Shown: piece by piece, positions 8,851 through 60,486 of the stretch
Position numbering within the stretch: position 1 is the first letter of the stretch
Layout of the letters: the number at the start of each line of letters is the position of its first letter
Source of the DNA: Felis catus
Lineage: Eukaryota
DNA length: 64,000 nt
Reading direction: 5' to 3'
NCBI RefSeq assembly: GCF_018350175.1
Contig: NC_058382.1
Span: 48,920,001 to 48,984,000, forward strand
The notes under the pieces: generated by a model
Database searches by the model: none
Seen by the model: only the letters and a program-made list of their open reading frames with translations
What the model was told of the DNA's origin: nothing
Position numbers and translations under genes: made by a program

Positions 8851-8949
8851 TTACTCTATGTGATTTAGATATCCCCTGAAATCTTGGAGCCTAGCCTCAA
8901 GATCTCAGAGTCCTCACTGAATTTTTTCCCATCTCGTTTATTGTACATT

Positions 8950-24791: not shown

Positions 24792-25152
24792 GTAAGTCTC
24801 TCTTGATTAGACTCTGCTTGCTGGGCTCTGCTGCGCTTCCCAGAGTTACTTGTTACTAATATGGTGTGTAGTGTGTGTATGTAATCCGGTGTGTTGATAG
24901 TAAGGAGGAGATACACCTCATTTGGGAGTTGTCCCCTTCAAAGTAATCACTGTGGGATATTCTAGCAGTGTCACTGTGCACAGGGTTTCAGTAACTCTTT
25001 TTGGAATTAGTCACGGAGCCTGTGGGATGTACTTTTCAGCTGTTTTGATCCTTTGAGTGTGCATTTGAGTTTGTAAACAGTAAGTATGGTGAGTGACACA
25101 GACGATCATGTTGAGTAGTACAAGTTTTCTTTAAAAATTACATATTGATTAT

Positions 25153-37460: not shown

Positions 37461-38195
37461 TTGTCATTTTGTCTTTTTAGTTATTAAAGCTAATAATGTA
37501 GTCTGGTACTAGGCTTTAGACATCACAGAATACGTTTAAACATCACACAGTAGGAGTATCTGCCTTCAGTTGAGGAAACTTTATTTAGGGTGTCTGACAC
37601 TTACAGTTTCCAGAACCAAGAATAACATGAGAGGCTGGCCATTGTGGGACACGGGTAGGGTGCGCCGCCTTCCTGGCTCAGTCACTTGAGCGGGGTGGGG
37701 GGGGGGGGACGCGGGTCTCTGAGATGTGCCATCTGTGGAAAAAACAGACATTGCCCATGGGGTCCTGTGTGACACACATTTCCCAGCACGGGCAATGCAC
37801 GTGAGGATGGGGTGGGGAGTTGGGGCGAGAGCAGAGCCGCGGTGGCTGAGCGGACTGAGAGGCACTTGTGGGCCTGGCCGTTGATGGGGTGGTGAGAGTG
37901 TGTGTAGGATTCTCATTTGAGGACTGCTGTGTGCTTGGCTCCCTGTCCCAGGCTCCACAGAGAAGGGAAAGCTATGGATCTTGCTTCCATGGAGTGTAAG
38001 TCGGGTTAGGGTGACCCTGGCTCATTACTCCTGGGTAGTGATGCTTCAGTTGCTCGAGGATGAGACGACCTGAGAATTTCATACACCCTCCTCGCTTGTT
38101 GAGGTTCACGGTGTCCCCCATTGGGTGCTGCCAGACACACTCCGTGTTGAATTCGGAAGGTGTGCGGGCTGCTGACCTCTCGTTTCTCCCTCTAG

Positions 38196-39953: not shown

Positions 39954-40358
39954 GGGATGGATTTCATTGGCCGGGATGCCCTGCTGCAGCAGAAACAGAA
40001 CGGGGTGTACAAACGCCTAACTATGTTCATTCTGGACGATCACGACACCGATCTGGACCTCTGGCCCTGGTGGGGAGAACCCATTTACCGCAACGGGCAG
40101 TACGCAGGCAAGACCACCAGCAGCGCCTACAGCTACACCCTGGAGCGCCACGTTTGCCTGGGCTTCGTGCACAATTTTTCCGAAGACACTGGGGAAGAAC
40201 AGGTTGTGACGGCAGATTTCATCAACCGGGGAGAGTATGAGATTGACATCGCGGGACACCGGTTCCAGGCCAAGGCCAAGCTCTACCCTGTCACCTCCCT
40301 CTTTACCCACAAGCGCCGAAAGGATGATGTGGAGCTAAGTGACTTGCATGGAAAGTAA
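39954..40358 (+). CDS. PDPR: PDPR coding exon 17 (last)
   Basis: GMDFIGRDALLQQKQNGVYKRL...RRKDDVELSDLHGK-TAA; 405 nt. The 17 exon lengths sum to 2637 nt with no frameshift. Confidence 0.97.
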   Translation, partial: GMDFIGRDALLQQKQNGVYKRLTMFILDDHDTDLDLWPWWGEPIYRNGQYAGKTTSSAYSYTLERHVCLGFVHNFSEDTGEEQVVTADFINRGEYEIDIAGHRFQAKAKLYPVTSLFTHKRRKDDVELSDLHGK

Positions 40359-43300
40359 TGCCGGGCTCCCCTCCAGTCCCAACCCTCTGCTTCCCATCTT
40401 TTACCTCCCGGATAGGATTTTAAGCTTCACCTGCTTTAAACCTTTTGCTTTGCAACCTCTCTTCTCCTTCCACCTTCCCTCCTCCCTTTTGCAGTGCAGT
40501 TAACCATCTAATACTCCCTCTGGGCTGTTCTTCCAGCCCCCCACTCCACCCCTCTCAGATCCTCATGGTGACACAAAGCATGTGTGACAGGCAGGACAGG
40601 TAAAGACTGCACTCGTGGAAGTGGGGAGCCAGGGGTCTGATTTCTCTGGCTGTGTCTAGAAGCAGGGGAAGCTGGTGGTATGCAGGCTGCAGGGCAAGAG
40701 TCCAGCTCTGTGAGGCTGACTTTTCTCCGAATAACCTGCTCATCTTGGCGGGTTGCTGTGGATCCGAGGCAGCCCCTTGCGAGAGCCCGTGCTGGGGGTT
40801 GGCACCGATCCCTCTACAAGAGGATGACCATCTACCTCATTCACGAGCGGCACCATGTGCATGTTCTTTGGTCTGTAGCAAACAGCCGGCCTGGGACATC
40901 CCAGCCTCCCTACTGACCCAGTTACTAGATTTGCGGATCAGGGCCACCCTCCTAACATTTCCTTCACGTCTTGCTGATCTCTAGAAGAGGGTCTGGGGGC
41001 CTGAGTAAACAAGCCAGTGTTTGAAAGGGAAAGACCATGTTGCCTTTTGTATTGATCTTCTTGGAAAATGTACCGCACAGAGGTGGTTTGCTGCTGTCTG
41101 AACAGTGCTGCTGCTTTCAGCTGCTCAAAGCTCACTCTTCCCATCTTGACCATCCTCTTCTCCAGGTGCATCTTTGTCCCCTCTCCTTACCTGCCCCTTC
41201 TGCAGCAGGCCCACTCGGCAAACACTGCTGTCCCTTTGGAACAGGGAGGGTGTGTGGTCCTGGGGAGGAACTAAATCATGCTGGCCGTGCAGAGTTCAAG
41301 AGCTACTGGACTCTCAAGTTTTGCTTCCTCGGGCACAGAACAGACAGATCTGCACAGAGATGACCCTCAGGAGTCTGGGGAGGGTCCTGTGAGAGTCTGC
41401 TCTTCATCCAGCCATCTCTCTGTAGCTCTGGAAGAGAAAATGACTGGGCCCTCCACTCTCTTACGCAGTGTCTGTCTGCTAACGGTGAGGCTGGGCTGTC
41501 AGAAACTTGTCCACCCTTTGCACTTAAAGTCCAGTGGGGGCAGTTTATACACAAAGTGCTGTCACAGATTTGAATGAACTGTTGTCTTGATATCTTGGAA
41601 GCGTTAGCTCTGACGAGTCTGTCAGTCCATTATAGAAGGGCCTTTTGTTCTCCGTGAGCAGCTTAGAACTCTCACGTGTGTCTGCCTGCTCTGGCGTTTC
41701 TTTGGGATCTCGGTTTACCCCCTTCATCTGATAGATTCCCTATAGAAACTTCTTGTCCTCTGCCTAGCCAGACAGTTCCTACTTGATTACTGATTGTAGT
41801 GTCCATTTTTTAAAAGAGGTCTTCGTTGATTTATTAAGGGAGTATGTGGTTACAACTGTTAGGGCCTCACTATGTGATGGGCTGAGAGATGCTGCTGCAA
41901 GGATGGGGGAGAGGTGTCACCTCGTAGGACAGGGCGCAGCAGCTGTGACACATGGGGGAGAGCAGGAATCAGGCACCTGCTCAACACAGGTGTTAGCAGC
42001 AGGGGCCCAAGTGACCAAGAAAGCTGGAAACAGGCACTGTAGAGCTAAAGGTATCCCCTGCCCTGTACCACTCTCGTCTTTGAAGAATTTAAAAGAAGTT
42101 CTAGATTTATGTGTAAATTACATCTTGTCCATAAATAGGGGCACACTTTTAAGACTCGGGCAAGATGTATTTATTGAGTGCCCTGACACACACACTCAGC
42201 TTTTGGCACTTTAAAATTCACCCTGGAAATCTTTCTTGGTTAACAATGTGAATCTGGCACTTGTCTCTCTTTGGTCCTAACCCTGAAGTGGGTGACTCGT
42301 TCCTGACTTCAGCATACCTGACAGAACATCCTGCAATCTGTCGTTCCCATCATGGGTTTGCCTTGTGTGTCTGCTCCTCTGTCCCTAGAGATTCAAAGGA
42401 TCTGGATGCTTTGTGAATGCGTGGCGGGACTTGGGTTTCAGATGGCTGGTACTTTTTTCTCTGTGAAATGATCCTTCATCACTTCTTATGGTCTCTTGAG
42501 GGAGGGGCTCTGTGTTCTTCTGTCTTGTCCACATATTCAACTGGACAATCTTGTTTTATCTGGAAACAGAAAGCGTGCCAGCCTCAGACGAACACAGAGC
42601 AAAAAGGGACAAGATCTACCTGCTTGGATAGCCTACCTGATGTCCTGTGCCCGGCTGGGGGGCCCTGTACCCCCAAATACAAGAGATGCTGTTCAGAACA
42701 GGGGCCCAGAGACCGTTAAGCTCAGTGAGTAACCTTAGTTATCCCGTTTCTGCAGGAGGAGAGTCCTGCTACTTGGACTCTCACCAGGAGACATGCTGTC
42801 CCTGGATTCTACCTTCTTAAACACACCAACAGTTTTACCTCTTTCCGTTCTAAAAGTGGAAAGTAACTCCACCTTTCTCCCTTACCCTGCCTCTGAATGC
42901 ATTTGAAACGTTAACCCCGCCTCCCCACCATGGAAGTGGCAGGAATGACAGTTTTCTAAAAGCGGTTTTGCTTCACTGAAGCGAGAACCCACCACCTTGA
43001 TTTCTGGCTCTTCTTATCCTCTGCCTGATGAACGCACGTGCTGGCATCTGAGTCTTCACCATCCTCTGACAACCTAAGGGAGATAAAAGGGAATCTTCCA
43101 TAAGCTGTAGTCCGGGTTCTGACCCCAGAAGGCTGTGTCCTGGTACAACTGCACTGGCTTTGCTTTCAAGGGTTAGCGACCGGGTTCAGTGTTTTGCATC
43201 TTTGCAGCTGCATGGTCAGTATCATCAGCAAGGGTCCCCTTTAGCATCTGAGGTAGGGGTTTGGTCACTAGTGCTTAGTATTGAAGAACTTTCCATGGTT

Positions 43301-45010
43301 TTCATTTCCTTTCTGCACACCACCCTTAACCCACATCCCTCCCAAACTTGCCAGGAGCAGCTTTTCATCAGCATGAAAAAGGGAAAATTTGCACGAGTCA
43401 AGAATTGTCAGAGGGGATGACAGGGTAGGTGACAGAGTCTGGGAGCAAGCTCTGGGTCTCCTGGCTGTGCCTCTCCCCGCGACCCCCACCCTGGCCTCCA
43501 TGTTAAGGTGCTGAGTTGTAAGGCTCCTCCATCACCCGTACAGGACCTGGGTTCACACTCCCTCATCACTACAGATGCACTATTTTTCAAGAGAACTATT
43601 TTTGTATGTCTTTGCCTTCTCTTTGTCCATTAAACACCAGAGTTTAGTCCTTGTATAATATGATTCTTGACTTCTGAGCAGAGAATCTGCATCCCTTGGA
43701 GAATTCCACGTTTCTTCATGGGCTTTCTTCCTCATATTTAGATGTACCTATTTTTATCCTTTGCCAACCTTCTGCCTTCTTGGTTTTCTGTCTCTAAAGG
43801 ACAGAAATTACAAGGGGTGGGGAAGGTATTTTTAGTATCTGTTTCAAAAGATCTGTGCCAGGATTTCCTTTGCACACCCGGAACTGGAGCTTGGAGCACC
43901 TTTCTCCAAGCCCGGTTCTCGTGCCTTACACCAGAATGTCCCATGGTAGGTGTAGACAGGAAGGATGAAAAGAAACTTCGCTCAGTCTGAGGGTTTCCCC
44001 AGCCACCCCCCATAGCTTCCCTTCCCCATATCAAACAGGGATAGAAAGTTTCCACAGCTTGTTTCAATCAAGGGGTTTCTAGCAGCACAGTTAACACTTC
44101 ACTCTCCGGTCTACTCTTAGGATACAGGAAAATGCCATTGTAATTATTGTACAGTGCTGTAACTCCTCCTTTACATCTGTAAATATGCAGTTTGCTCAGG
44201 CCCTTAGTGTGCAGTGACAGGTGCTGCTGAGGACATGTGAGGCACTTTAGGGCATGGGATCTTTCTCAGGAGCCCTGGTGACTTTAGGTACCCAGGGTGA
44301 CTGAGCACTTCTGCCTCTATGAATGCGGTATTAACATCATGCCCTGTATTTCTTTCAAGCCAGATTCCAATTAAGATGTTCTCTTCATGTTATTAAGTTT
44401 GTAAATGAATAAAGAGACATTTTAATAACTCTGGTCATAGCAACTTGTGAAATGTTCTTCATCTCTAGCAACTTGATGTATTTGCCATCACAAGGGGTAA
44501 GCACTCCCCATAAAACCATTTATACCAAAGCATAAAAAAAAAAAAAAGAATGTGGAAACCAAGGTAAGACATAAGCATTATGTTACCCTTTGTGTAGGGC
44601 TGACAGGTGTAGAGAAAGTCCCCAATTATCTGAAGTTACGGTCTCAGTCACTGGATCTGACCGCCCATCCTGCCTTACGGTTGATTGCACAGTAAGGAAC
44701 CTGGCACTTGAAATATCCCCCATCCATGTGAAAGCCCACGCTGGCATGGAAAAATGGGCTCTCTATATATTCTTGCACACACAGTAGGAAGAGAAGAAAA
44801 TGGAGAGGAGCACCCAGTGATCTTTCCCTGTAATCTAAAAATGTAGTCACTGGTCTTTGTTTACTGACCTATTGTTGAGCAGCTACAATCTGTGAATTGA
44901 GATAGGCAAACATGTCTCTAATAATCGCATGAATCTGTCTTCCAAAACCACTTGCTAAATTTCCAGATCATCGAATGATCAACATTAAATACAAAAGTAC
45001 ATCCCACAGG
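40359..45010 (+). other. PDPR: Probable long PDPR 3' UTR (end uncertain)
   Basis: SINE-free stretch after the stop codon. First clear AATAAA seen at 44408-44413, plus ATTAAA at 44984-44989. Confidence 0.6.
44408..44413 (+). terminator. Candidate polyadenylation signal
   Basis: AATAAA about 4 kb after the PDPR stop. Also retained in both paralogous copies (4738-4743 minus, 57424-57429 plus). Confidence 0.55.
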
Positions 45011-45026
45011 CTCTGTGGTAATTCTG

Positions 45027-48000
45027 AAATAAGGGTTCCTGAAACCCTGTGCACAGTGACATTGCTAGAATATCCCACAATGATTCCTTGAAGGGGACAA
45101 CTCTCAAATGATGTGTATCTCCTCCTTACTATCAATACACCGGATTATACACACATTCCACACCATATTAGTAACGAGCAACTCTAGGAAGCAGAGCAGA
45201 GCCCAGCAAGCAGAATCTAAGCAAAAAGACTTACCTTCAAGCCCCTCCTCCAAACGACAGGCCAGCAGAGTTCACTCCCACTAGGACATAGTAGCCCTGC
45301 ACTGCAGGAGACTCGCCCATGATGCACCTCATGTCTGGGGTGCAGGTCTCGAGGCAGGTGACCAACTTCACGATCTCCAGAGTCTCCAGTTCTGGCATCC
45401 GACGCAGGAGGGAACTCAGCAGGGGCTCTGAGCCATAAAAACAAGGCCCGGCAAAGCACAAGGAACTGAACCGGTGGACCGGAAGTCAGCAGTTCTGGCG
45501 CTGGGCCCATTACACGGACCCTCTGCTGACTCAATCCCTGGTAGATACCCGATTCAAGTACCGGCTGCCATCAAGTTAAATCCAACCCAGAGGGACTCTT
45601 CCCGCCTGTCCTGCACGTATCCCGCATCTTCCCTAACAGAAGCCAGAGACGGTGCAGCGGCAGGCACCAAGCACATTTACCATCTTCACTCGCGGGTCCT
45701 CGCCTCTCAAAAGCAAGCCTGGCCGAGAGCGAGGACACCACGGGAGTCGGGCTCATCTACCGGGCAGGGACCAGGGCGAGGCGGCTGAGGCGCCCGCTCT
45801 CAGCACTGGGCCAGCGCAGGGCCGGCCGGGGAACCCTGCTCACGTGCCCAAGCACGTACAGCCTCTTCCTGCCTGCCTGTAGCTCCTCTCCTGGCATCTC
45901 CCCTTCTCCACTGCCACATCAACCCAATCCTGTTACAGGACGCTCATCTTAACCCACAATTGACAAACAAGGTCACACTTCACCAGAGTGCGAGTTATAT
46001 GAAAGGGAAAGCTAGAAAACCGTAGTCTGTCGTCAGAATCTCTGATGATTATGATCTCACCTTCCCCAGTGAAAACTGTGTCATTCGCCACCTAATTTCC
46101 AGTTGGCCGGCAAAGTGAGCCCCAGGCCGTGCGTACCCCGTGACCACATGGCAGAGCCACCTCAGCTGGCACACAGATCGCGCTACCGTCCTGGTCAGGA
46201 GGGGTCTTGACTTCCCTGTGATTTGAATCACGCAGGTGTTCTGAAGAGCAGCCCTGAGCTACACGAGCGACTAGGCCCAGCTACTCGCTTAGGACAATTC
46301 CCGCCGCCACCAAACGGTTTCACCAGCTACGACACAGGCTCAACCCTGGGCTTCCGGCTAGTCCATCACCTCGCGACAAGCTGACAGACCTGCTTCCTAC
46401 TTGTTTTCATATGGGACCGCCCCATAGCCTGGTCTCCCCGTCCTACTTGCTCCGGTCGTATTCGGCTCACGATTCCCCGGGTTCTTTTCCCTTGGTGACG
46501 CACACAAGGGGTAACATACGCTTAAGCTTTACAGTCACAAATATCCTTAAGCGGGACTGGTGAAATTCAGTGGCTCAGACTATGATTTCACTGTCAAGCA
46601 CCAAAACTTAAGCACTTCCTTCTCTTCCTCCTTCAGGAGCCAGATGTGGCCACCTAATATATACTTCAGAGGGTGAAATAGGAAATGGCACAGGAAAACC
46701 TTCACATCATAGGAATTCTGGCATCTGGATAGGATCCGAGATAATGACCGAATCCCCTCGACAGATAAGGAAACGGGAGACAGCTCGACACGCTCACACA
46801 CTGGCCCGAGGTAAGACCAGGACGAGTGCAGAGCTCGGACTGAAACTCAAGCCTCAACTAAAGTCCCCAGGCAGGCTTGGTGTCGGACCGCATGTGGTAC
46901 CGAGTGAAAGAGTCCGGGCCACAGGCAGACCAGTAAATGGCAGAGTACCTGCTTACCTGTTTGGATCCCTGTTTCTTGCTCTAACTGCTGGTAGAGTTTG
47001 TTGGAATAGTCTGCCATCTTCTGCTCGATGGTCAAGTGCCTGGCGGTGCTCAGGATGCCGGCACAGAACCTCGTAGAGCCAGCGGCCAGCCTGCGGGATG
47101 GATCCAAAATGCTCTTAGGTAGACTCGCATATCTGTGAATGCAACTAGTTCAAAGACCCTCATTACTGGCACCGACCGTAATATCAAAAGACGGAAACCT
47201 AAATATCCCGACAGGAGAGGGATCTCAAATGTTGGCGTTCACCTACACGACGGGACGCCGCGCAGCCATAAAAAAGGCACGAGAATGCTCTTCTGCAACA
47301 ATATGGGAATCCGAATGAAAACAGCATGGGAGGAGCACTACTTAATATGCCACTAACTTGTACAAAAAAAGAGAAAAAAATAGCAAGTGAAGACCCACGT
47401 ACACACGTACACACTGACCAACACGTTTGCTCATATACACGGGGGGTGTCTGCAACGACACACTAGGAACTTAATTTGCCTCCAGCGAGGGAAACTTCAG
47501 CCAGAAGTCAGGGATGAGAAGCAGACTTTCCCTGCACACTCTTTTACAGTTTTTAATTCTGAATCGTATAAATGCATTGCCTATTCGGAGAAAATTACAA
47601 CGGACTTGTTAAACGTCATTCAATTTCTGGTAGGCAATAGAACAAAAAAGGACTTTAAGGGAAAGTGAGACAACTTGTACCAAGTACGAACCTTAGTCAG
47701 TAATAAGGTATCCATATTGATTCATCATATTTAACGGTAACCCCAACCTGAGATGTCAGTCCCAGGTGCACACAGGCGTGAGGCACACGGGAACTCGGTA
47801 CAACCTTTGCATTTGTTCTGTAAATCTAGCACGGCTCTAAAATAAGTTAATTCAGTGGGGGGAAAGAAAGGAACAGAAAGAAGACAGATGCAGCCAATTT
47901 CATTTCCGCCCATAGAGGGAGCTCCAGAGCCACGGGGTCTATGTTGCCATTTGACGGCCCCTACCCGGAGAACAAGATGGTAAGATGTGCCTGGACCCTG

Positions 48001-51000
48001 AAATAAAACGCAGCCTCTTCGGATACTCGGCTCCGCGGCATCTGCCACCTCTCTCAGAGCCCAAAAACACGGGTATCGCACATCGCGAAACCATGGACAG
48101 GAGATTTCGCCTTTCCGTGACTGTTCTCATGCTACCTAGCGACAGGTTAGCCACTGCCGGGACAGGTTACCGGGAGCAGAGGGGGTGAGGGAAGCCCACG
48201 CAGTTGGTGCAACATGGCCCCAAGCCGGGTCCCGTCTGGTCCTTACCTGCCCTGCTCCAAAAGGACAATATCCTTCCAGCCCATCTTGGAGAGGTGATAG
48301 GCCACGGATGTGCCCATGATTCCACCGCCACAGATGACCACGTGTGCCTGGGCAGGCAGGGCGACAGAATGCGCCTCGGCAGCTGGCGCACCGCTTCTCC
48401 CCGACGACCAGTTCTGCCATCCTCGGCCGGTCCTTTGTCTCCGGGCCACCGACAGCAACCGGGAAAACATCACGTCTGCCAGTCAGCAGCTCGGAGATGT
48501 GCTCCCACTCGGCCAAAGAGGAGATTCTCCCCAATTCAAACTAGACAGAGAAAGCAAACAGATTTCATTCCACTGTACTCAGTGCGCCGGGTTAGTGACA
48601 AAAGAAAAGGAGGCAACAGAGAATGATAATCATCGTGCCTCATCCAGACAGAGGCACAAGCACATGCAAAGGCCCTGAGGGGAGGCACACCTGAAGGAGT
48701 CCGAGCACAGAAGGGAGGCCAGCGTGCCCACAGCTCGACGGCAAGGCACAGTCGGCCAGAGACGAGGCCGGAGAGGCAGGCAGAAAGCAGTGACACAAGC
48801 GCTTGGATGCCTCACGAGGAGCTGGGATTTTACTCCAAGTGCAAAGGAAAATACTAAAGCAGGGAATGAAATGATCTGATACGCTTTTCCTAAGATCGGC
48901 CTGGCTCCACAGTGGGGAGTGGACTGGAGGAAAGGCAGGGCTAGGAAGCTACCGCAGGAGTCCAAGAGGGAGGGCACGGTGGCTCACACAAGGATGGTGG
49001 CGGTGGAGTCAGAGCCATGACTGGATTGTCGTGGATGGTGAAATGACAGTACTTAACTTGCCAACAAACCGGATGTTAAGATGGGGAGCGGGAGAAAGAC
49101 GGACGATGGCAAAGTTTCCAGGTTAAGCGACGACGGGTGCCACTTCCTAAGGTGTGAAGGACTAGGGATGCGGAGGGAGGCGGGAGGGAGAGGGAGGCAG
49201 GAAGGAGAGGGAGAGGGAGGCGGTGAGGGCGCGTGCGCGCATACCGAGGTGTCAAGGGCGAGACACCTAGCAGGCATCCACGTGGAAGTGCCAAGCAGCT
49301 ACATAACCAGGCCTGAAACCTGGGGAAGACGTGGGGTATCCGGAGACCCGGCAGTCTGAGGAACAACTCTGAGGCTCCCCAGCAGGCACAGCTTGGCAAG
49401 AGAAAGAAAGTACTGGACGGGGGACTGCGCGCCGGGGCAGACTCACAGAGCGTCCAAACGGCTGAGCGGCGGAAAAGGAACCGGGCAGAGGTGTCCCAGA
49501 AGCCGAGAGAGGAGATGGTTCGCTACAGAGGGTGGCCAGGGATGGAGCAAGACGGCCAGGTGCCTGCTGGGACTTGACGACACAGAGGTCCTTGGTGTCC
49601 TCAAAGAGGACATTCCCAGGGGAGTGCCAAGGACGAAGTATGGACTACAGCAAGCTCAAGAGCAAGGAGATGAGGGAGTGTGCACAGCTTCCTCACGTGC
49701 TGCCCGGAAGGGAGCAGAAACCCCAGACAGGAGGAGAGAATGGGGGTGGAGCAAGGCTATTTGTCTATAAAGGTGGGAGCCACGGAGACTGTTTCAGGGC
49801 TGGCGAGAAGGGCCAGGAAGAGGGAAAGAGGTGGGGGAGGAAGGAGAGGCGGTGACAAAGAATGAGGTCCTGGAAAGGAAGGGAGAGGGAGAAGAGAAGG
49901 AGAAGAGAAGGAGAAGAGAAGGAGAAGAGAAGGAGAAGAGAAGGAGAAGAGAAGGAGAAGAGAAGAGAGAGAAAACAAACCCAAAGCCGCAGTGAGGGAC
50001 GGCGTGCCCCGCGTCTGCACAGGCCACAGACTGGAGACACCAGGTCCCACGGCCCCTTCCTGAAAGCAGGGGAGGACCGGTCATGGCAGGCTTATGACGA
50101 ACCACGGGAGTCACAGGCTGCGACCAAGCGCATGTCCCTCTGAGATGACTAACACCATGAGGTAGACTAGGGAGCGGACAGGTTCAGGCCACCAGGGAGA
50201 ATTACTCTAAGGGCATACTGTTCAATTTTTAAGAAACTGCAGACAGCCCTGTGGGCGAAGGCACGGTCTCCGAGTGTGGGGAGACGGCGACACTTCAGAG
50301 GAGAGCCCTGGCAGCCCGTGCGCCCACCAGCACGCCGCTACCAGCCCGGGACCCACGGAGGGCCCCCGACGGCCCAGGTCGTCCAAGGCCAAGGTGTGGG
50401 TGCCCATCCATCAGACAGGATCTCAGAACTGAGACCGAGCAGGCCTCCACTGCGTCCCAAGGAAATCCCATCCAACCAGGGCTGATTACTTTGGCCACCT
50501 TGTGGTGACCTCCAGGCCTCACCTCCTTGGTCCCCGCCAAACCGTCTCAAGACAGAAGCTTCTCCACAGCCAGACTTCCCACAATCTCATCTCCATATGA
50601 CTGATTTCTCTCTCTCTTTCTTTCTTTCTCTCTCTCTCTCTCTGTCTGCTGTCCTCCGCTCCAAACCTCTCCACCGTGTCCTCCAGAACATCCTTTCCAA
50701 ACTGGAACACCCAGCCCTTCACCTAGCTTCTCTCCACCTCTGCTTCAACAGAGACACAGCTCTACTGAGGGAAACGCCACTGCCACGTGGCCAGCCCGTC
50801 CCACTGACCTTGCCATCGGGGGGGGGGGGAGGCGGGCACCCTTCTCCCTTCAGAACCATTACCACTTGGTCATGCTTGAAAAGACCCTGTTCCCTCATGG
50901 CTCACACTAGCAGGCACCCCGTAGCGAGCCCCGGGCCACTGCGTGTTCAGCCACAGGCAGATGTCTGTCTACATTCAGGTTCTGAACCCACAACACTGCT

Positions 51001-54000
51001 CCTCTCCCAACCTGGGACCCCACCTCCTTCCTTCCTTCCAAACACAAAACCTGTCTCCTCAACCCCTGAAACTCCACCTGCATCTACGACCACCTCTTCC
51101 TTCAACCTCGTAGGGTCAAAAGTTGATCCCTCCCCACGTGCCCTGGATCCCTCTCTCTCCTTCCTTCCCTTGACTCGGCTCCATCAACTGTCCCCTTCCA
51201 CGTACCTTCAGTGTCCCCTCCAATCCTCAGCATTTTAATATGCTCAAGTCCCTCCCAACTGACTTAAGAAATACAAGAAAGGCTCCGTACCAGTCTTCCA
51301 ATGGTGATTTTTAATTTTACAAATTCTGAATTATAAAAATTGTGGTCTTTGTAAACCACACAAACGTAGAAGGAAATTAAGATCTCCCATCATGCAAAAT
51401 ACTCAATTCCAGGGCTGATGAAATTTCCCCAGACTTATTTATCTTGCAGCACGTGCTCCCCTGACACCCACCTGTGTGCCACCACCTGTCTTAAAGTCCT
51501 TTTTGTTACACCTCGGTGATTGCACAGTCTGCCGGCGGGCTACACCAAAATTTACTATGACGTCACAACCTGTCTTTTTCACTTGACAAGAAGGGCTTCC
51601 TATGGTATCTGTCACTTTCCCCCCTTTCCACCGTCCCGAACCCAAGCGGTTAAGCTCCCGTCCCGCAGGCCGGAATACTGCTCTCACCAAGAATGCCACT
51701 GTTGCCACCTTCCAGGGACACCGGGCCCATCTCACTCACCCTCTCCACGGCACTGAACACCGCCGATCGCCCCCGCTACTCACGCACTCTGTCCCTGTTT
51801 TATTTTGACACCGACTACCCCGGTCACACCTACACCGCCTTCCCTCCCCCGCCCATCCTTCTGTGTTGCTGTCCCTCAGGGTGTCTGGGACCAGCTTCTC
51901 CTCTCAGTCTGCCACCCTCCAGGGTCATTTCACGCGTACCAAGACTGACGCCTAAGCCCACAACAGCCCCGAGCTTTACATCTGCACCTCGAGCTGAACA
52001 ATGGCCATGTCCACTTGGGTTCCCGTGGGTCACGCCGAGCACATCCAGAAGGGAAACCCACCTGCCTCAATCTCCAAATCTGCTCCACTTCTGTGTCCCG
52101 CAGTGACACCATACACAAGAATCCCGGGTGTCACCTCCTCTCACCTCCCTCTCTCTCACCTCCTCTATGCGGCCAACCGTCATGGACTAACAATTCCACA
52201 GGCGACATTTCCCTCAGACCATCGACCTCTCCCCCTCCTCACTGCCATTACCTGAGTACAGACCGCCCTCCCCGATCAGATGAAGGCAGAAGCTTCCCGA
52301 CAGGGCTTCCGCACACCATTCTCCCCACCCCCCCTCAATCCTTCCGAGGAGGGGCGTGGAGGGAGGCTTCTCAAAGGAAACCCTTGTTCACACCCCTCTT
52401 CAAAACTCTGCAATGGCTTTCTGACGCCCTGAGGAAAAAAGCATTGTCCTGAACAGGAAGTGTGCGAGATCCTTCATCATCAGGCTCATTCCTGACCTCT
52501 GGTCTCTTTCTCTCCTCTCCAGCCAGACGGACATACTGATAATTCCTCCAACAGGACAGGCATTGAGTCTCTCTGAAACCCCCAGGATCGGGGCACACTG
52601 TTCCTTCGAACCACACGGCATAGTTCCTGCCCCCCTGCCCCCCAAACATGGATAATCCCCTCAGCTCTCACCCTGTTTCACAGCTTATCAGACCCCCTCT
52701 CCCCCAATACCGCCTCAGGTGACTCTTCCGTGTTCTCCCACAGCACCCTGCACTTCTCCAGCACAGAGCCTCCCACACTGTCACAGCCTGTTTGCCAATC
52801 AGGGAAACGGCACAGCGACCCCGCTGGAAATGCAGGCTTTGGGGGCAGACAGGTACGGGTCTGAAAATCTCCCCCACCTCTCATCAGCTCTATGGCTTTG
52901 AGCAAGTCATTCCATCTCGGTGCTCCAGGCTCCTCATCCACAAGGTGAGCTACGAACACCTGCCTCGCCGGGTTGCCACAAAGACTACAGGAATACAGAC
53001 AATACAGGAAAAGCATGGTAACTGGCACCCGAGAAGCACTCAGTAAGCGCTAGTTTTTAGTCTCCTCTTACAATGGAGCTCTCTGGGAGCTGAGACCAGT
53101 TACCACTTCAACGTGATTCTGCCGGCATTCAGGGTAGGCACCTAGGAAATATAATCAACGGAGGAATGAGAATGTACAATAAACGAGATGGGAAAAAATT
53201 CAGTGAGGACTCTGAGATCTTGAGGCTAGGCTCCAAGATTTCAGGGGATATCTAAATCACATAGAGTAATTTTTTAAAATTGTTTTCAGGGGTTTTTTTT
53301 GTTTTTCAGAGAGAGAAAGGGAGCCAGCAGGAGCCGGGGAGGGGCCACAGAGGGAGAGAGAGTATCTTAAGCAGGCTCCACGCTGAGCATGAAGCCCGAT
53401 CTGGGGCTCATCCCATGACTCTGGGATCCTGACTTGAGCCAAATCCAAGAGTGGGACACTCAACCAACTGAGCCACCCAGGCCGGTAGAGAAGAATCTGA
53501 AGATGTCAGAGACAAAGAAATAAAAGGTGGAGCCGGGTTTAAAATAAGTTATATTTAAAAACAAAAAACAAAAAACTAAGATGGCCCTATAATATTCTCT
53601 CCCTCTAGGAAGAATCGCTAAGGCAACCTCAATATCGGGACTGGTTATGCTCACACCTGCTTACGACAAGAAGAGCAAGGGACAGCTCCAAGTCCCTCTG
53701 GGTTGTTCCCCTGTATGGTCCCAGCGTGTGTACAAATGGGCCGCTGGTCACAAGGAAGCCTAGTGAGTGGAGCTCGACCGACACACTTCCCACTCTTGCT
53801 TCAGCAGAAGGGCCACCTGGGACATTTCCTTCAAACAGACAAAAACCCCAACGCTATCCCAGGCTCTTTCTCTGGAGAGGCTGGTCCCGGGGGTGTATCT
53901 GTCAAAACGTGCCACCAGGTGATCAGGCAAGTTTAAGAAATTAATACATATCCCTAGCGCTGGAAAAGTGTGCCCCGTGGCCCGGCACCGGCACCCCTCC

Positions 54001-54780
54001 CCTCCTCCCCCCCCCCCCCCCTCCCCCGGCCGCATGCCCGGACGTCACGCTTACAGAGATTCCCGAATCTAATGTGAATGTCCTTCACAGGGGTCCCGAG
54101 TGACCAAACATCACGAAGACAGTTCACCACCCTGGCCTACACTTTTCCCGGTAACTCGGCTTGCCGCACTCTGCGGCAGGCGTACAAGTTAGCGAAGCAG
54201 AGGCGGACCGCACGTCTCCAGGCGGGAAAACGATTGCACCTGCAGAGGGAGAAGGGCGGGCGAGACCAGCCAAACCCGCGCCAGGCGCTGTGCAAGCCCG
54301 AGGCGGGGGGCCCGAAGCGAGGGCACCCCGGCCGCTCTGGACATCGGGCTGAGGAGCGCAGGCCCGGGGGCAGCCGTGCACGGGGCCCCAAGGCCCGGAC
54401 CCCGGACCCCTTCGGCCGGACGCCGCACAGCCGCAGACCGACTGAGAGAGACGAGGCAGACCCACTCCCGCCCCGGGCCGCCGGAGTCCCCAGCGACCCG
54501 GCAGGAGCGACAGGAAACGAGGGGCGGCCGCGACCACCCCCGAGGAAGACCAAAGCGAAAAGGGGGGCGCTGAGACCCGCGCGGAGGGGAGGCCAGAGCG
54601 GCCCCGCCGCCGTCTCCTTACCTCACGAGCCGCCGCGGGCTCCGCCGTCAGCAGCACCCCGGCGGCAGCGGGACAGCAGCCACAACAGTTGCCGGGGGTC
54701 CCGCCGCCAGAAACGGGGCACTGGGAATGGGAAGGGGGCGGGGCGGAGGGAGTAAAAAGTTCCGGGGAAGCGGGAGACCG
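45027..54780 (-). pseudogene. Partial inverted PDPR duplicate: exon 1, coding exons 1-2 (48470-48247, 47090-46957) and a diverged coding exon 8 (45427-45235) with premature TGA
   Basis: Coding exons 1-2 translate identically to the parent. The exon 8 copy has 10 substitutions in 193 nt, including GGA>TGA at 45239-45237. All splice dinucleotides are intact. Exons 3-7 and 9-17 are absent. Confidence 0.92.
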
Positions 54781-55265
54781 CGACCTTCCGCGCTTTACGG
54801 CCCCCGGCAAGGGTACGCCCGCGCGTGCCGGCACACGCGCACGCGCGCGCCGTGACGTCCCCGCGGCGGCCCCGCCCCTGCCACGTGGGGCTTGTTTGGG
54901 TGCCGCGAGGCCCCGCCCCGGGAGCTCGGCCCCCGCCCCAGTGGTCCAGGCTGCTTTCTGATGTGTGCAAGTGGAGCGGGGACGCTGCGGTGGGTCGCCG
55001 GCCTTGCCTTGCCGGGGTGTCGGGAGCGCGGGGCTTCGCTCTGCCCTCCAGGCGCCCTGCCGCTTCTGTCCCCGAGCGGGTCCGCGGCTCAAAGCCACTC
55101 TAGTCCCTGGCGCAAAAGGGCGGCGTGGACCGACAGTCCCTTGTCTCTGGAAGGCGCTCGGCTCTTCCTTGGGCCAGGCTCTAGCAGAGCGTCTGAAATC
55201 CGGTCTGCGGGCCTGGCCCGACCTCGGAGGCGGGTTTAGCGACCCTGAGCTCTGGGCGGGATCTC
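53975..55265 (-). promoter_or_regulatory. Duplicate PDPR CpG-island promoter, pointing back toward the PDPR 3' end
   Basis: Mirror of 6850-8140 with GC boxes, E-box, CRE-like, NRF1-like and ETS-like motifs and the exon 1 donor (~54621) retained. Confidence 0.88.
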
Positions 55266-56444
55266 ACGCTGCACCTTCCGGGCTTGCCTGGGCCCGAGGG
55301 AAGCAGAGTCATTCACTCCGTCTTCTGAGAAGCCTCCCGTCCAGTCCTCCCTTCCTATCGCTTGGCCCTGTCTTCTTTCCCTCGTGGAACTCATCACTAT
55401 CTAAAGTATGTGTTCGCTGACTGCCTTTGCCACCAGTGGCAGGCCCCGGACCCTGTCGACAGAACCTCAATCTTAGGCACGGCAGCACTTGCAGCAGCGC
55501 TTGGCGCATGGTCCAGCCAGTATTTCTTTGAATGGGGAGCGTTCTGAGGGCACGGCCGCCACTGCACGGTGGGCCACACTCTCCACCTCCCGGTCTTGGG
55601 ATTGAAGCCCGTCTTGCCACACGAGCCAGTCTCGTTTCCTTATGGCCTCTGATGATGGGATTCCGCAGTGCACAAGAACCGGAGGGCTGCTGCCATTTTA
55701 GGGGGTGGCAGGAAAGCTCAGGGACCCCGGTGGCACCAGGCCGGCCCACAACCTGCACAACTGTCTACCCACTGACTCGCCAGTTGACTCACACGCTACA
55801 TTGCACCGGGTTCTGGCTGCCTGAGGATGGAAACTCCGCCTCTTGCTGGTCTGACGCATAAAAGTTGAAGACATTCTGCGCTTCTGTGCAGAGAAATTCT
55901 TCAGTATTTTAGCTATAATGGCTTAGAGCTTGGTGTCACCTGACTACCCAAAAGGAAGAGGAAATAGACCAACCCATCTGAGGTTGTATTCTTGAGGACG
56001 TCCCAGATGTGGCAGTTTGGGGAGAAAAACTTCACAAGTTTTCCTGATGAGTAGTTTCACCTATGCCATTTTCAGGCTTGTGAATTGGGGAGAAACCTAG
56101 TTGTCTGTACGAAACGGTGGGTGAAATGAAGTGATGGTGTGGTAAATTCCATTCCGTTTACGTGCAGTTAAGTAGTGAACACACTGTACGCATTTCTCCC
56201 TGCTTACGTCAACCATCACTATTTTTTGATGTTTATTTATTTTGAGAGAGGGAGAGAGAACAAGCAGGGGAGAGGGGCAGAGAGAGAAGGAGAGAGAGAG
56301 AGGATCCCAAGCAGACTCTGCACCACCAGTGCAGAGCCGGACGCAGGACTGGGACCCACCAACGCTGAGATCATGACCTGAGCCCAAACCAAGAGTCAGA
56401 GGCTCAACCGACTGAGCCACCCAGGTGCCCCTCAACCGTCACTA

Positions 56445-57790
56445 TTTACATCTCCACGATAAAAGGCTGAGTCCCACGGCTCCTTTATTGTCGACGTTGG
56501 TTCTTGTACTTTCTAGGCTCTCATGTCCACCAAATGCCCTATTCTTCAGGAGGACTGACTGTTTTCTCTTCCGGGCTTCTCCTACTCCACGAAACGTCAG
56601 AGTGACTTCTTGTACGATACTTCACAGAGCACACCGTCCCGTGCACAATTACACGTCTTGACGGGACTTTTCACTCGTGGTATTTGGATTCACCGTTGCA
56701 AACATTCTGCCTTCTTGGTTTTCTGTCTCGCAAGGACTGAAATTACCAGGGGTGGGGAGGATAGTTTCAGCATCTGTTTCAAAAGATCCATGCCAGGATT
56801 TCCTTTGCACACCAGGAACTGGAGCTCGGAGCACCTCTCTGCTCCAAGCCCGGTTCTCGGTTCTCGGTTCTCATGCCTTACGCCAGAATGTCCCACGGTA
56901 GGTGTAGACAGGAAGGACAAAGAGAAAGTCAATCACTCGGTCTGAGGGTTCCCCTCCACCCCCCACAGCCTCTCTTCCCCAGATCAAAGGCCTGGCCTGC
57001 TGGGTAGAAAGTTTCTGCGGCTTGTTTCAATCAAGGGGTTTCTAGCAGCACAGTTAACGCTTCACTCTCCGGTGTGCTCTTGGGATACAGGAAAATGCCA
57101 TTGTAATTATCGTACAGCGCTGTAACTCCTTATTTACATTTTGTATTACAAAATGTACATTTTGTATTACAAAATGTACATTTTGTAAATGTGCAGTTTG
57201 CTCAGCCCCTTTCTGTGTGTGTGTGTAGTGACAGCAGGTGGTGCTGAGGACACGTGAGGCATTTTAGGGCACGGGCTCTTTCACAGGAGCTCCGGGGACT
57301 TGAGGCGCCCAGAGTGACCAGCACGTCTGCCTCCGCGGGCGCGGTATTAACATCCTACCCTGTACTTCCATCAAGCCGGAGTTTAATTAACGTGTTCTTT
57401 TCATGCGACTGGGTCTGCAAATGAATAAACAGACACGTTAATTACTCTGGCTGAGTCCACTGTGAAACGTGCTTCATGTTTGGCGACAGGGTGTTAAGTA
57501 TTTGCCATAACAGAGGATAAACACGATACACAAAACCTTATCCACCTGTGTTACCAGAGCATAAAACAGGATTTGGAAACCAAGGCACAGCACACAGGCA
57601 TTCCATCACCCTCCGCGCAGTGGCGGCATGGCTAGAGACAGATAGCCTCCCTTACTCTTCTGAAGGTTTGAGGACTCACATCTAAGTCTCTAACACGCGA
57701 CAGACTGAACCAGCCAAGAAAGTGCTAAGCATGCGGTAGGCACCAGCGGTGGTGCCTCGGAATCGTCTCGGGACACGTAAAGCAACACCC
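56445..57790 (+). repeat. Right-arm copy of the 3' UTR paralog (direct repeat of ~43490-44740)
   Basis: Same blocks; ORFs 43742..43990 and 56677..56901 show related translations. Confidence 0.9.
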
Positions 57791-60434
57791 TCTGAGTGAA
57801 CTGGAATCAACCAGGCTGGAAGTCTGACCCGTACTTCTCGAGAGGCTTCCAGGAAGCTCTCTCTCTCGTGTCTCGAAACCGCTGGGTGCCAAGAGTTGAG
57901 CAGTCCGGAGGACAAATGGTAGCTGTGAAAGCTCTGTGGCTTCAGAAGGACTTTCGCTGGTTCCTAAGGAAGATACTTTGAGCAGGACAGGGCTCTTCTC
58001 ATACCTCATCCCATTGGATCTTGTGACAATCTTAGTAGGTGAGGTTTTAGCAGACGATGTGGGCTCAGAGGTAACGTGACTTTTCCAAGATCACGCCGCT
58101 TGTGGGAAGATCTAGAGACGGAGCCGAGGTGTTCGTTCTGAATCCAGAAGCCATCTGCGCCGTAGCATAGGGCAGGTGGCCAGGAGGACGTCTGAGGCTG
58201 GGGACAGAGAGCGAGAAAAGAGCACGCAATGTAACAGTAAGGAGCCCCACTTAGCTGTGCTCCCCGGATCTTTTCAGGCCCTGTGCCGTCTGCCAGGTGA
58301 CCTTGCAGTGCGTGAAAGGGTTGGAGTATATGTGTCAGCCGTCCTGAGGACTTTTACAAAAGGTCGGCAGAGACCGCGGTGTGCAGGCCCGGAGCGAGGC
58401 CCTAAGGCAAATTACGCGCGTCCGTAGCCCTCCGGGGTGCGGCTTTTCATCAGCGATGGTGCCCTGAGCGGCCACCGTGTCTTGGAGGATCATGGGATCA
58501 CACCGGAGGGGAGACTCGGGAAACAGATCTGAACCCGGCCTGACGCCCAGCCCGCCGACCCCGCGGCCCGCAAGGGCCACCCGCCATCCGCCAAACCGCA
58601 GCCCCCTGCGGGCCCGTAAGCGTGAGGCCAAGTGCTCTGTGACGCACCGGGTCCCGGGCTGGGGTGTAGCAGCCATCTCGCGGCTCGAATAGAGGGCGTC
58701 TGGCCGCGTGGCCACGCAGGAACGACGCAGTCAGGGCCTCCGTCTCCTTGAGGGACTCTTCACTCGCCGCGAACTCGGGAGTCACCGGTCTTTTGTTCCG
58801 CTCATCTAACCAGCTTCTGAGCCGCTACGTGTGAGAACCCCATAAGCTGACACGTCGGGAACGACCTCATCATCCAAATCTCCTTTTATTTCCAGTCCAC
58901 GAATGGTCAGCCAGGTCAGAAACCGCGGGGTCATCTGGTCGCCCCGCTGGCTTCTCCCCGTACCTCCGGTTCGTCACCCAGCGCGACCGAGTGGTGTCCC
59001 CGGACCTCTGGTCTCTTCCGGCCTCTCGTTCCTGCCGCTGCTGCCGGGGTTCAGAGAGTAGCATCCCTCGCTCTGATGACGATCCCCGAAGAGATGGCCC
59101 CGCTCCTGCTCCCACCCTGTCCTCGCTCTGCAGGGCTGTCTTTCCAAAACACGTGGGATCGTTGTACTCCCTGGCTTAGCGCGTCCTCATGACTCCAGTC
59201 GTTGCGGAGGTTGCGTCCGGACTCCTTAGCGTGTGGCAGAGCACGGTCCTCATGGTGGAACTCGTTCTGGGCCCACACACTGTGCGACGCTGGGGCCCGA
59301 TTCCTGGCCTGTTTGCCCCGTGTGTGTGTGCGGCTCATCTTTCCTCTCACCCTGCTCTCCACTCGCACCCGCCAGACCCATCTCTCGCTCGCTGAGATGC
59401 CCTTCCTGGCACCTGTCCCGCTGTGCTCGGGGAAGAGCTCTGCATTTGGAATCAAATGCCCCCCCCCCCCCAAGCCCCTCCAGTCAGCCTGGCAGACCGT
59501 CCAGAATTTCAGAACCTCAGCCCACATCACCACCATCTCTCGGTGAAGCCTCCCCTTCCCCACAACACCTGGTCTCCCTTTGGTGTGGCCGCTGGACTCT
59601 CTCCGCCTCTGTCTTTACGTGGTCCTCTCCCCTCCTCGCGTGTCAGTCCCTCCCAAGAGGACTGGCTTCCCCGTAACCACCTTGTGCTGCGCCCTGCATC
59701 CGCCAGATGATTACTTGAGGGAAAGCGGTGAGGGCGAGCTCCGAGCTCCGTTTGCCAATCTGTGAAATGGCAGTTTCGTCGTGGCCTCGTGGCCTGGGAG
59801 AGCAGACAGGACTCTTTTCTGCCTTGGGTGTACCAACTCACCGGTAGGTGGCGCTGAGACTCGTGAATTGAGGTTTCCCGGGTCTCCCAGCCCCGCATCT
59901 GGAGTGCAGGTAGTCAGGATTAACTAGAAACCCAAATCAGACTCGTCAAATCTCCCCCTGAGAGGTGATAATCCATGCGGCCCCCGTGGCACGGGAGGGA
60001 CTGAGGAGAGGCTCTCTGGTGCAGCTTCGTAAAGAGCGAAGTGCGCTTACCTTCCTGCTGTCCTCACCTCGAGGGGCCTCTGCAGAGTTAGGGGCCCTCA
60101 GACACTTGGATCTGGGGCATCGTCTGACTCAGTCCCCCAGAGTCCGGGGTCAGAGGGTCGCTGTCCTATTTGGTCAAGAGCATAACTTTGGAGCTGACCT
60201 GGCCTGGGTCTGAATGCCTGCACTGCCTCTTCCTTGGCGGATGACTCTGGGATGTTAGCTTTCCTGAGCCGCCTCTGGATTAGGCACCAATAGAGACCAT
60301 ATAAAAAGAGAGAGAGCCTATAGGAGATATATATACCTATACATATAGATATATAAATCTATATATATTATATATAGATAATACAAAAATTTTAAAGCTC
60401 CCCTCATATATATATATATATATATATATGAGCA

Positions 60435-60486
<52 letters not shown>

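Follow-up and report, generated by a model that had tools for sequence, protein, structure and literature searches.

The locus analysed here raises the question of whether a truncated, inverted copy of the PDPR gene can give rise to a small protein of its own. An earlier note on this DNA, the 64,000-nucleotide stretch of Felis catus sequence called here the window, had proposed that the first two coding exons of the copy can be spliced in frame to a remnant of coding exon 8, with a 182-aa mini-PDPR as the product. The answer depends on how the copy is built, on what follows the remnant, and on how the sequence has been changing.

The window contains an inverted duplication of about 21 kb, placed tail-to-tail with the intact PDPR gene. 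Its parts, and those of the parental gene that matter for the comparison, are the following:

1..16709, plus strand: left arm, comprising the upstream region and the 5′ exons of the parental PDPR gene (self-BLAST and arm comparison)
24585..25036, plus strand: parental coding exon 8 (24598-24792) and flanking sequence, from which the remnant was copied (self-BLAST and tblastn)
40356..44990, plus strand: region from the parental stop codon (40356-40358) to the candidate poly(A) signals, likely a long 3′ UTR, its extent being estimated from signal motifs only
44993..45234, minus strand: start of intron 8 as copied, with which the duplicated material ends on its inner side, homology stopping at 44993
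45441..45444, minus strand: deletion junction, where intron 3 (parental 16709) is fused to the last ~14 nt of intron 7 (parental 24585), with TTGT microhomology
45441..62142, minus strand: right arm, 98.7% identical to window positions 1-16709 by self-BLAST

What the right arm duplicates is the PDPR upstream region, the CpG islands, the region of non-coding exon 1, the ATG exon, coding exon 2 and a portion of intron 3. The arm runs past the window to about +65522, and a separate 826-bp block lies farther out. With the flanks included, the arm alignment has 20,153 columns, and the identity by self-BLAST is 98.7% over 20.2 kb. The parental counterparts of the two copied coding exons are at 13680-13903 and 15058-15191 (tblastn with seal PDPR), and candidate poly(A) signals of the parental gene are found at 43629, 44408 and 44984, with none ahead of 43629 in the region past the stop codon. 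A three-way sequence comparison revealed a deletion of ~7.9 kb in the copy, from which coding exons 3-7 are gone. What is found is thus an intron-containing partial copy with lost exons, as in a non-processed truncated paralogue, and with one change that disables the parental frame, GGA to TGA at exon codon 64. Transcription and splicing of the duplicate in the cat are presumed, with indirect support from the multi-isoform gene models of other species.

All this makes it likely that the locus represents the 3′ half of a PDPR paralogue that is truncated, retains introns and is of the non-processed (duplicated) kind. According to this explanation, an inverted duplication would have taken the PDPR promoter region and 5′ exons, originally through intron 8, and the copy would have been inserted tail-to-tail immediately past the parental 3′ end. 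A 7.9-kb deletion in the copy would then have removed coding exons 3-7 and made the hybrid acceptor that precedes the remnant of exon 8, here called exon 8′. The exon borders so brought together would share phase 1 by chance, so transcripts from the copied promoter joining coding exon 2 to exon 8′ would keep the frame. In the cat family, the GGA-to-TGA change, two codons ahead of the exon end, would shut the frame at 182 aa.

Palindromic layouts are a known failure mode of assemblers, and the near identity of the arms (98.7%) could be taken to mean that the inverted duplicate is itself an assembly artefact, for instance a mis-joined haplotype. This is hardly credible, since a deletion junction, a 9%-diverged exon-8′ piece and downstream exons all belong to the copy alone, the same truncated gene appears in models from many carnivore genomes that were assembled independently, and, of the words sampled from the 449 bp specific to the remnant, at least half are present in each of 20 sequencing runs from 11 studies. 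The exon-8 piece occurs in only two copies in the whole 2.43-Gb assembly.

The exons that make up the proposed reading frame are:

48247..48470, minus strand: coding part of the ATG exon of the duplicate, 224 nt, with the presequence and the GxGxxG motif and 0 differences from the parental exon
46957..47090, minus strand: coding exon 2 of the duplicate, 134 nt, ending in phase 1 and identical to the parental exon
45235..45427, minus strand: exon 8′ remnant, 193 nt, with the TGA at 45239-45237 and the donor GT at 45234-45233

Joined on the minus strand, 48470-48247, 47090-46957 and 45427-45237 (224, 134 and 191 nt) form an in-frame ORF of 549 nt, translated into 182 aa and a TGA with no internal stop. 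The first two segments amount to 358 nt, i.e., 119 codons plus 1 nt, so that the junction has phase 1 on either side. AG acceptors or GT donors are present at all three segments, and 2 nt separate the TGA from the donor, exon 8′ ending at 45235. The coordinates, phase, stop and donor of the splice proposed in the earlier note were thus all confirmed, as were the identities assigned to coding exon 2 (47090-46957) and coding exon 8, by tblastn with full-length seal PDPR. The pyrimidine tract and CAG that had been described at the acceptor are also there, the sequence ahead of 45427 being ...TTGTTTTTATGGCTCAG|, with the refinement that this acceptor is a hybrid of intron 3 and intron 7: only the last 13-17 nt (T-run and CAG) come from parental intron 7, and everything upstream comes from intron 3. 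A second in-frame acceptor within exon 8′, which would start the exon at 45391, is suggested by models P0251 and P0249. The in-frame junction exceeds chance only in part. A phase match has a prior of about 1 in 3 and 63 open codons are unremarkable at ~5% divergence, so the frame alone is no evidence of selection.

The 182-aa ORF is already known, inasmuch as public models of it exist for other cats. In these models the junction is that of exon 3 with exon 8′, exon 3 being our coding exon 2 (the ATG exon is counted as exon 2, with non-coding exon 1 upstream). This junction was found in 26 of 266 collected proteins, all of them NCBI or UniRef models, from felids, canids, bears, mustelids and seals, and most bear the name "PDPR, mitochondrial-like". 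Seven distinct felid sequences of 182–183 aa are among the 26, and the product proposed for the window equals such predictions, e.g., XP_030153616.1 of Lynx canadensis (182 aa); RefSeq/Gnomon models of the same kind are XP_046934714.1 of Lynx rufus (182 aa), XP_025848825.2 of Vulpes vulpes (213 aa) and XP_057170228.1 of Ursus arctos (212 aa). The carnivore models share with the window the exon-3 to exon-8′ junction, exons A and B (see below) and an ATG exon with 99% identity, and in the felid models the stop comes after ...GGGA as it does in the window. They differ in that the window copy has H43, while every felid model compared has Q43, and in that the exon 8′ of the window carries three private missense changes (N24T, P26L and F29C). 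A model of the product of the window itself did not turn up, except for a 53-aa ORF without source (P0277). Longer product forms occur in foxes, bears, mustelids and seals; caniform versions read through ...GGGAGR into exon A or B, which makes the TGA felid-specific. As judged from the protein models, a single origin with identical breakpoints across carnivores is suggested.

The fate of a transcript containing exon 8′ would depend on the exons that follow it. Those identified on the minus strand are:

42996..43073, minus strand: exon A, 78 nt, with AG acceptor and GT donor, antisense to the region past the parental stop codon
42150..42559, minus strand: exon B, with its acceptor at 42559 and a provisional 3′ end
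37560..37732, minus strand: alternative terminal exon, with AATAAA at 37585, located in an intron of the parental gene, past the last exon of that gene

The felid isoform X3 and the tails of models from mink, badger and Iriomote cat match exon A. Exon B, near which there are minus-strand AATAAA signals at 42175 and 41835, is matched by fox, bear, sea-lion and badger tails; with fruit-bat and pangolin tails it scored higher than all 300 shuffles and than 299 of 300, respectively. The downstream exons are moderately conserved, with 48–65% amino acid identity in tblastn matches. The terminal exon at 37.7 kb, which in the Panthera-type isoform X2 is spliced straight to coding exon 2, is 86% identical over 51 aa to model P0004. 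Exon 8′ is correspondingly optional in the models: it is skipped in X3, replaced by the 37.7-kb exon in X2 and shortened in P0251, and in P0002 intron 3 is read through. Most likely, the copied promoter would give a mixture of low-value transcripts, with exon 8′ included, skipped or shortened, with intron 3 retained in some, and with three alternative 3′ ends, all of them running antisense into the parental 3′ region.

A stop codon less than about 50–55 nt upstream of the last exon-exon junction allows escape from nonsense-mediated decay (NMD). The earlier note had expected escape if at most one more exon followed, a situation that does not hold generally, because exons A and B both exist and felid isoform models join A to B, while bear and fox models join 8′ to B. 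In a 2-3-8′-A-B transcript the stop is 80 nt upstream of the last junction; in an 8′-to-B transcript it is within the limit for escape. NMD escape therefore varies by isoform: of these, only the 8′-to-B form modelled in bear and fox would escape, and the form with A and B would be an NMD target.

Concerning the product itself, it had been said to keep the mitochondrial leader and, besides the GxGxxG motif, the glycine-rich motif that comes later. All three are indeed present in the sequence, with mitochondrial import being a prediction, and the exons for residues 1-119 do not differ from the parental ones; even so, the statement claims more than is left of the protein. In a Pfam search, the felid 182-aa form P0230 matched DAO (PF01266) at profile positions 2-82 of 353 only, and full PDPR (P0015) at 2-353, while FAO_M, GCV_T (folate-binding) and GCV_T_C, present in P0015, were absent from P0230 and P0240. 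The product lacks 212 FAD-domain residues (coding exons 4-7) and the helix that follows the glycine-rich loop. The AlphaFold prediction for the natural felid 182-aa form had a mean pLDDT of 42 and a pTM of 0.28, against 77 and 0.79 for full-length PDPR run as a control with the same 49-sequence alignment. Confidence from an alignment of that size says little about cellular stability; an autonomous, confidently predicted fold was not obtained for the 182-aa form. The parent is a clear member of the DMGDH/SARDH family of flavoproteins (solved structures 5l46, 4pab, 4p9s and 1pj5), with a phmmer E value of 4e-113 to human DMGDH and a TM score of 0.80–0.87 between the full PDPR model and DMGDH. 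The mini-ORF resembles that family in retaining the N-terminal beta-alpha-beta GxGxxG unit, and differs in the loss of most of DAO and of any GCV_T part, which precludes functional membership. If made at all, the 182-aa product is probably an unstable fragment without flavoprotein function.

The pattern of divergence within the duplicate is uneven. Over 16.7 kb the arms differ by 102 substitutions (0.6%) plus 125 gap columns, and exons 2 and 3 of the duplicate are identical to the parent. The 449-bp exon-8 piece diverges by ~9%: between exon 8′ and parental coding exon 8 there are 10 changes in 195 positions (5.1%), and the intron 8 head differs from parental 24793-25036 by 26 substitutions in 240 aligned bases (10.8%) plus 5 gap columns. 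The arms are thus far more alike than the adjacent co-duplicated sequence. Moreover, the remnants share residues specific to the parent gene of their own lineage, four of four in the fox (canid-specific), two of two in the pangolin and two of three in felids (Y47 and V50), which points to long-running gene conversion as the process that homogenises the arms. Gene conversion would hold the arms near the parental sequence, with the small exon-8′ piece rarely converted and otherwise drifting.

The changes in exon 8′ look neutral. The earlier note had counted seven of ten as missense or nonsense, and our comparison gives the same figure (6 missense, 1 nonsense and 3 synonymous); its caveat of neutral decay also stands, with a dN/dS of 0.68 and a nonsynonymous share of 6/9 versus 0.74 expected (p = 0.70 against neutrality), small counts of only nine codon changes with which weak purifying selection is compatible too. 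Five of the six missense changes fall at residues unchanged in the parent of the window. The window-only changes N24T, P26L and F29C (exon numbering) are all in the NCPETF motif, which 12 of the 14 aligned parental sequences from other mammals keep unaltered, the residues N24, P26 and F29 being invariant in all 14. Each other cat bears private changes, including one frameshift (P0233) and one scrambled C-terminus (P0227).

It could nevertheless be thought that the mini-PDPR is a functional mitochondrial protein, either a small fragment that binds FAD or PDP1, or one with a dominant-negative effect. The open frame with an unaltered N-terminal part, the stop so close to the donor that 8′-to-B transcripts would escape NMD, the models in at least seven felid sequences and the longer open forms of caniforms speak for it. 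Considering the neutral pattern, the damage to a conserved motif in the window and the private lesions of other cats, together with the missing FAD-domain residues, the low fold confidence and the optional use of exon 8′, this is quite improbable. The ORF looks like a decaying by-product rather than a working protein. On the other hand, the open exon-8′ frame kept across many caniform lineages could reflect constraint besides conversion.

Truncated PDPR copies have precedents. Segmental duplication at human 16q22.1 has likewise produced partial, intron-containing PDPR copies, among them the pseudogene LOC283922 (PDPR2P), at a locus structurally unstable like that of carnivores (10.1101/2020.12.13.422502); the human CNV tied to LOC283922 lacks the first three exons and lies 4 Mb away, within LCR16a-driven duplications (same source). 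Another paper mentions PDPR_2, a duplicated gene whose exon use is altered (PMC13639854). Unlike the human copy, that of carnivores retains the 5′ exons and exon 8 and is directly tail-to-tail with the parent, and it looks like the result of an independent event.

The large inverted repeats (palindromes) of mammalian sex chromosomes are homogenised by arm-to-arm gene conversion. The present locus resembles them in its arms of ~21 kb with 98.7% identity around a 28.7-kb spacer, in the much more diverged segment just beyond the arm, and in the greater GC and CpG content of the arms. It differs in that one arm is the 5′ end of a working gene, and in that conversion is deduced here from divergence contrasts and lineage-specific residues.

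A last alternative is that the main product of the locus is RNA. The copied promoter would drive convergent transcription across the 3′ UTR, last exon and last intron of the parent, and PDPR output would be tuned by antisense action or by interference with transcription; in that case the ORF would be a side effect, and it is for its RNA role that the locus would have been kept. In agreement with this, exons A, B and the 37.7-kb terminal exon are all antisense to the parental 3′ region, which is free of poly(A) signals before 43629, and the promoter has kept its CpG-island character in both copies (o/e 0.92-0.93; left-arm coordinates 7001-8000). The architecture is found in every carnivore family sampled, and the fruit bat and pangolin may share it, their exon B tails being equalled by 0 and 1 of 300 shuffles. 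In man, PDPR dosage matters for serum pyruvate (10.1101/2020.12.13.422502). Against it, gene conversion with the parent and the lack of any cost can account for persistence, and any constraint on downstream exons of such modest identity may belong to the overlapping parental UTR. We regard an RNA role as unlikely, and a decaying truncated paralogue remains the preferred explanation.

The most far-reaching interpretation, which we consider distinctly unlikely, is that the duplicate is an ancient regulatory partner of PDPR, whose promoter, renewed by conversion, gives rise to convergent transcripts that cross the PDPR 3′ UTR and last exon and in this way control the dosage of the gene, perhaps along with a protein in caniforms. 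If this were true, the duplicate would be at least as old as Carnivora and might also be present in pangolins and fruit bats; the caniform frame, open to ~200–240 aa, may add a small mitochondrial protein, and cats would have lost the protein and kept the RNA.

The mini-ORF is the 182-aa frame that joins the ATG exon, coding exon 2 and exon 8′ (the remnant of parental coding exon 8) in the partial, minus-strand copy of PDPR. Joined by coordinate, its minus-strand segments of 224, 134 and 191 nt gave 549 nt, with 182 uninterrupted codons closed by a TGA at 45239-45237; exon 8′ ends at 45235 and GTAAGT comes directly after it. The first two segments amount to 358 nt, so the new junction is in phase 1 on both sides, and all the splice borders of the segments are canonical. 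Over 195 nt, exon 8′ departs from coding exon 8 of the parent (24598-24792) at 10 positions; six of these changes are missense, three are synonymous and one is nonsense (GGA to TGA). The earlier note had proposed that the duplicate can splice in frame to a mini-PDPR; when segments, phase, stop, donor and change counts were re-derived, its description of the ORF proved right in all checkable details, and its interpretation was supported in part. The open frame as such was rejected as a sign of selection, since one junction in three is expected a priori to be in phase, and an exon of 63 codons at about 5% divergence is often open.

Concerning the origin of the truncation, self-comparison of the window showed that 1-16709 (plus strand) equals 62142-45441 (minus strand) at 98.7% identity, while 24585-25036 (plus) equals 45441-44993 (minus) at only 91.4%. 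The arm ends were traced with 20 kb of extra flank on each side of the window. With flanks, the arms comprise 20,153 aligned columns and have, by self-comparison, the following limits:

Window -3382 to 16709, plus strand: left arm, flank included
Window 65522 to 45441, minus strand: right arm, flank included

Beyond the window, a segment of 8.5 kb that exists on the right side only (window coordinates 65522-74078) breaks the inverted repeat, and a further 826-bp inverted-repeat block lies past it. The right-only segment, which was either inserted in the copy or lost upstream of the parent, contained no ORF longer than 224 aa. In tblastn with full-length seal PDPR (protein model P0009), the intact parental gene was located on the plus strand at 13680-40358, while the matches on the minus strand were limited to the ATG exon and coding exons 2 and 8. 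The copy lacks about 7.9 kb including coding exons 3-7; at the boundary, intron 3 is joined to the final 13-17 nt of intron 7, with a TTGT microhomology at 45444-45441. The acceptor of exon 8′, described earlier as new, does carry a T-run and CAG, but it is a hybrid in which only these two elements are native to exon 8. Exon 8 occurs in two copies in the 2.43-Gb assembly, those of the parent and the remnant only. The locus is of a known kind, a truncated, intron-containing paralogue within an inverted segmental duplication.

No Rfam family reached its gathering score across the whole window, and the ORF search of the arm upstream of PDPR gave GC-rich spurious frames only, with no second gene recognised. 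A dispersed repeat of about 0.8-0.9 kb is found in three copies of 74-79% identity (4582-5453, 43758-44579 and 56693-57602), the second of them between exon 8′ and exon A, a downstream exon of the transcript models of the copy, adjoining the inner end of the duplication. There are also many copies of a SINE of about 200 bp across the PDPR introns.

Models of this truncated ORF already exist for other cats, and it is in the public annotation of many carnivores. The ATG-exon peptide was 99% identical to ‘PDPR, mitochondrial-like’ of Lynx canadensis (182 aa), Herpailurus and Panthera. In the cluster listings there were seven different felid sequences, 182-183 aa long, that share this junction and likewise end after ...GGGA; one further felid form, of 189 aa (P0233), is frameshifted. 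The forms are longer in fox (213 and 239 aa), in bears (212 and 213 aa) and in seals (200 aa), and those of mink and ferret have 206 and 184 aa; the forms of all these animals read ...GGGAGR and then continue. As the caniform forms go on past this point while those of felids stop, the TGA is a cat-family mutation in an older gene.

The protein collection was searched for the exon-3|exon-8′ junction among proteins of near, longer and shorter length. It was found in 26 of the 266 proteins collected, all of them from NCBI or UniRef; further proteins from the length-class search, inspected by eye, gave none with the junction, which is weak negative evidence. The Logan- and ENA-derived matches examined were unspliced or genomic, with exon 8 after intron 7 or with exon run-through into the intron. 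A search of sequencing runs with the remnant-specific 449 bp returned no RNA run as a holder, and for 14 rows the RNA label was only a guess. Contigs in which exons 2-3-4 are spliced but an intron is retained were also present in public assemblies. Other combinations of exons were seen in truncated ‘PDPR-like’ models or transcripts from vespertilionid bats, from Pteropus, and from a rhinoceros and a whale (P0013, P0049, P0023/P0024, P0258, P0016/P0019 and P0271). Within the literature collection searched, there was no paper on the carnivore locus or on a ‘PDPR-like’ gene. Human PDPR duplications and a pseudogene, LOC283922, are described in 10.1101/2020.12.13.422502; the duplications at human 16q22 resemble the present locus in being partial PDPR copies. 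Partial 5′ copies of PDPR, or aberrant isoforms, may be recurrent across mammals, with human 16q22 as one instance.

The non-PDPR tails of the carnivore models mapped onto the minus strand of the window, where they delimit the downstream exons of the copy:

43073-42996, minus strand: exon A, 78 nt
From 42559, minus strand: exon B, with AATAAA at 42175 and 41835
From 37732, minus strand: alternative terminal exon, with AATAAA at 37585

Splice order varied among the models. Coding exon 2 leads to A and then to B in felid isoform X3 (six sequences), the order is 8′-A-B in the Iriomote-cat model P0122, and exon 8′ goes straight to B in bear and fox models. P0251 and P0249 use an acceptor, also in frame, that lies 36 nt into exon 8′, and P0002 reads through intron 3. 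In the 8′-A-B transcript the stop lies 80 nt upstream of the last junction, so under the 50-55-nt rule this form is a predicted target of NMD. The claim that the transcript would escape NMD if at most one more exon follows is therefore isoform-dependent: it holds for the 8′-to-B form and fails for 8′-A-B. The tails of the fruit-bat and pangolin exon-8 models also matched exon B, above 300/300 and 299/300 shuffles, a weak hint from proteins that the architecture may predate Carnivora.

Exons A and B and the terminal exon at 37732 are all antisense to the 3′ region of the parent; past the parental stop codon, poly(A) signals on the plus strand first occur at 43629, 44408 and 44984. It could be interpreted that the copy acts on PDPR as an antisense partner at the RNA level, although we consider such a role improbable.

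Over 16.7 kb, 102 substitutions and 125 gap columns separate the two arms, with no differences in either the ATG exon or coding exon 2. The sole hotspot, with 26 substitutions and 27 gap columns, is in 12001-13000, because of a CTC/GAG-type polypyrimidine-polypurine microsatellite located in both arms (12160-12258, plus strand, and 49883-49973) some 1.4 kb upstream of the ATG exon. When the 65 residues encoded by exon 8 were aligned, the remnant of the fox proved to have 4 of 4 canid parent-specific residues and the pangolin remnant 2 of 2 pangolin ones. Y47 and V50 of the felid parent are also in felid remnants, and parental A60 is in some of them but absent from that of the window. These shared residues could mean that the copy arose independently in each lineage, but this is less likely given that neither the exon composition nor the downstream exons A and B vary. 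It is simpler to interpret that the copy exchanges sequence with its parent by gene conversion, which would work efficiently over the long arms and seldom reach the isolated 449-bp piece. At codon 43 of the ATG exon (13806-13808 and 48344-48342) both copies encode H, as does a fox model, versus Q in all the retrieved felid models; the identity of H43 in both arms fits a recent conversion between them.

The observed/expected CpG ratio was 0.61-0.62 in the arms (1-16709 and 45442-62142) versus 0.36 in the single-copy spacer (16710-44992). The arms are also higher in GC, and the CpG excess holds even in introns at 46% GC. GC-biased gene conversion might explain these excesses, as might long-term hypomethylation. 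In the right copy the CpG drop coincides with the arm boundary (45.5 kb), and CpG sites differing between the arms were retained 22 times on the right and 7 times on the left.

With respect to constraint on exon 8′, Nei-Gojobori counts, which leave out the stop codon pair, gave a dN/dS of 0.68 (6 nonsynonymous and 3 synonymous changes), and the nonsynonymous share did not differ from the neutral value of 0.74 (p=0.70). Five of the six missense changes were on the remnant side. M20V and M52V are common to all cats, and N24T, P26L and F29C are private to this genome and fall inside the NCPETF motif. Among 14 aligned parental sequences from other mammals, 12 keep this motif intact, and in the remaining two, opossum and platypus, S replaces T. 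The remnants of other cats carry private changes of their own. Divergence of the exon-8 piece was 5.1% in the exon versus 10.8% in the intron-8 head (Fisher p=0.036). Given the strong conservation of the parental exon, pairwise divergence in the exon should come to roughly half that in the intron if the copy drifts neutrally, and the ratio would fit such a copy.

The natural 182-aa cat sequence P0230, with four residues different, was used as a stand-in for the product of the window. Pfam recognised in it only positions 2-82 of the 353 of the DAO profile, with FAO_M, GCV_T and GCV_T_C all absent, while full PDPR has all the domains. AlphaFold2 with a 49-sequence alignment gave P0230 a mean pLDDT of 42 and a pTM of 0.28, versus 77 and 0.79 for full-length PDPR with the same sequences; the GxGxxG unit scored 53-59 in the mini-form versus 93-94 in the full-length model. 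No solved PDPR structure was found, the nearest being DMGDH (E 4e-113), whose structures the full-length model matches at TM 0.80-0.87. The models make it unlikely that the 182-aa fragment is an autonomous fold, although instability is not proven. As a protein, the mini-ORF would matter little, as it looks neutral and structurally incomplete.

Judging from sequence, the copy is probably transcribed but decaying, with its 5′ part kept fresh by gene conversion. The architecture of the locus perhaps deserves mention: a partial copy, some 21 kb long and about 99% identical to the 5′ end of a metabolic gene, has been retained through carnivore evolution and points head-on at the 3′ end of PDPR. It would also serve as a clean natural case of conversion halting at a deletion junction. 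Human pyruvate levels respond to PDPR dosage (10.1101/2020.12.13.422502), so a built-in antisense partner would be a testable regulator.
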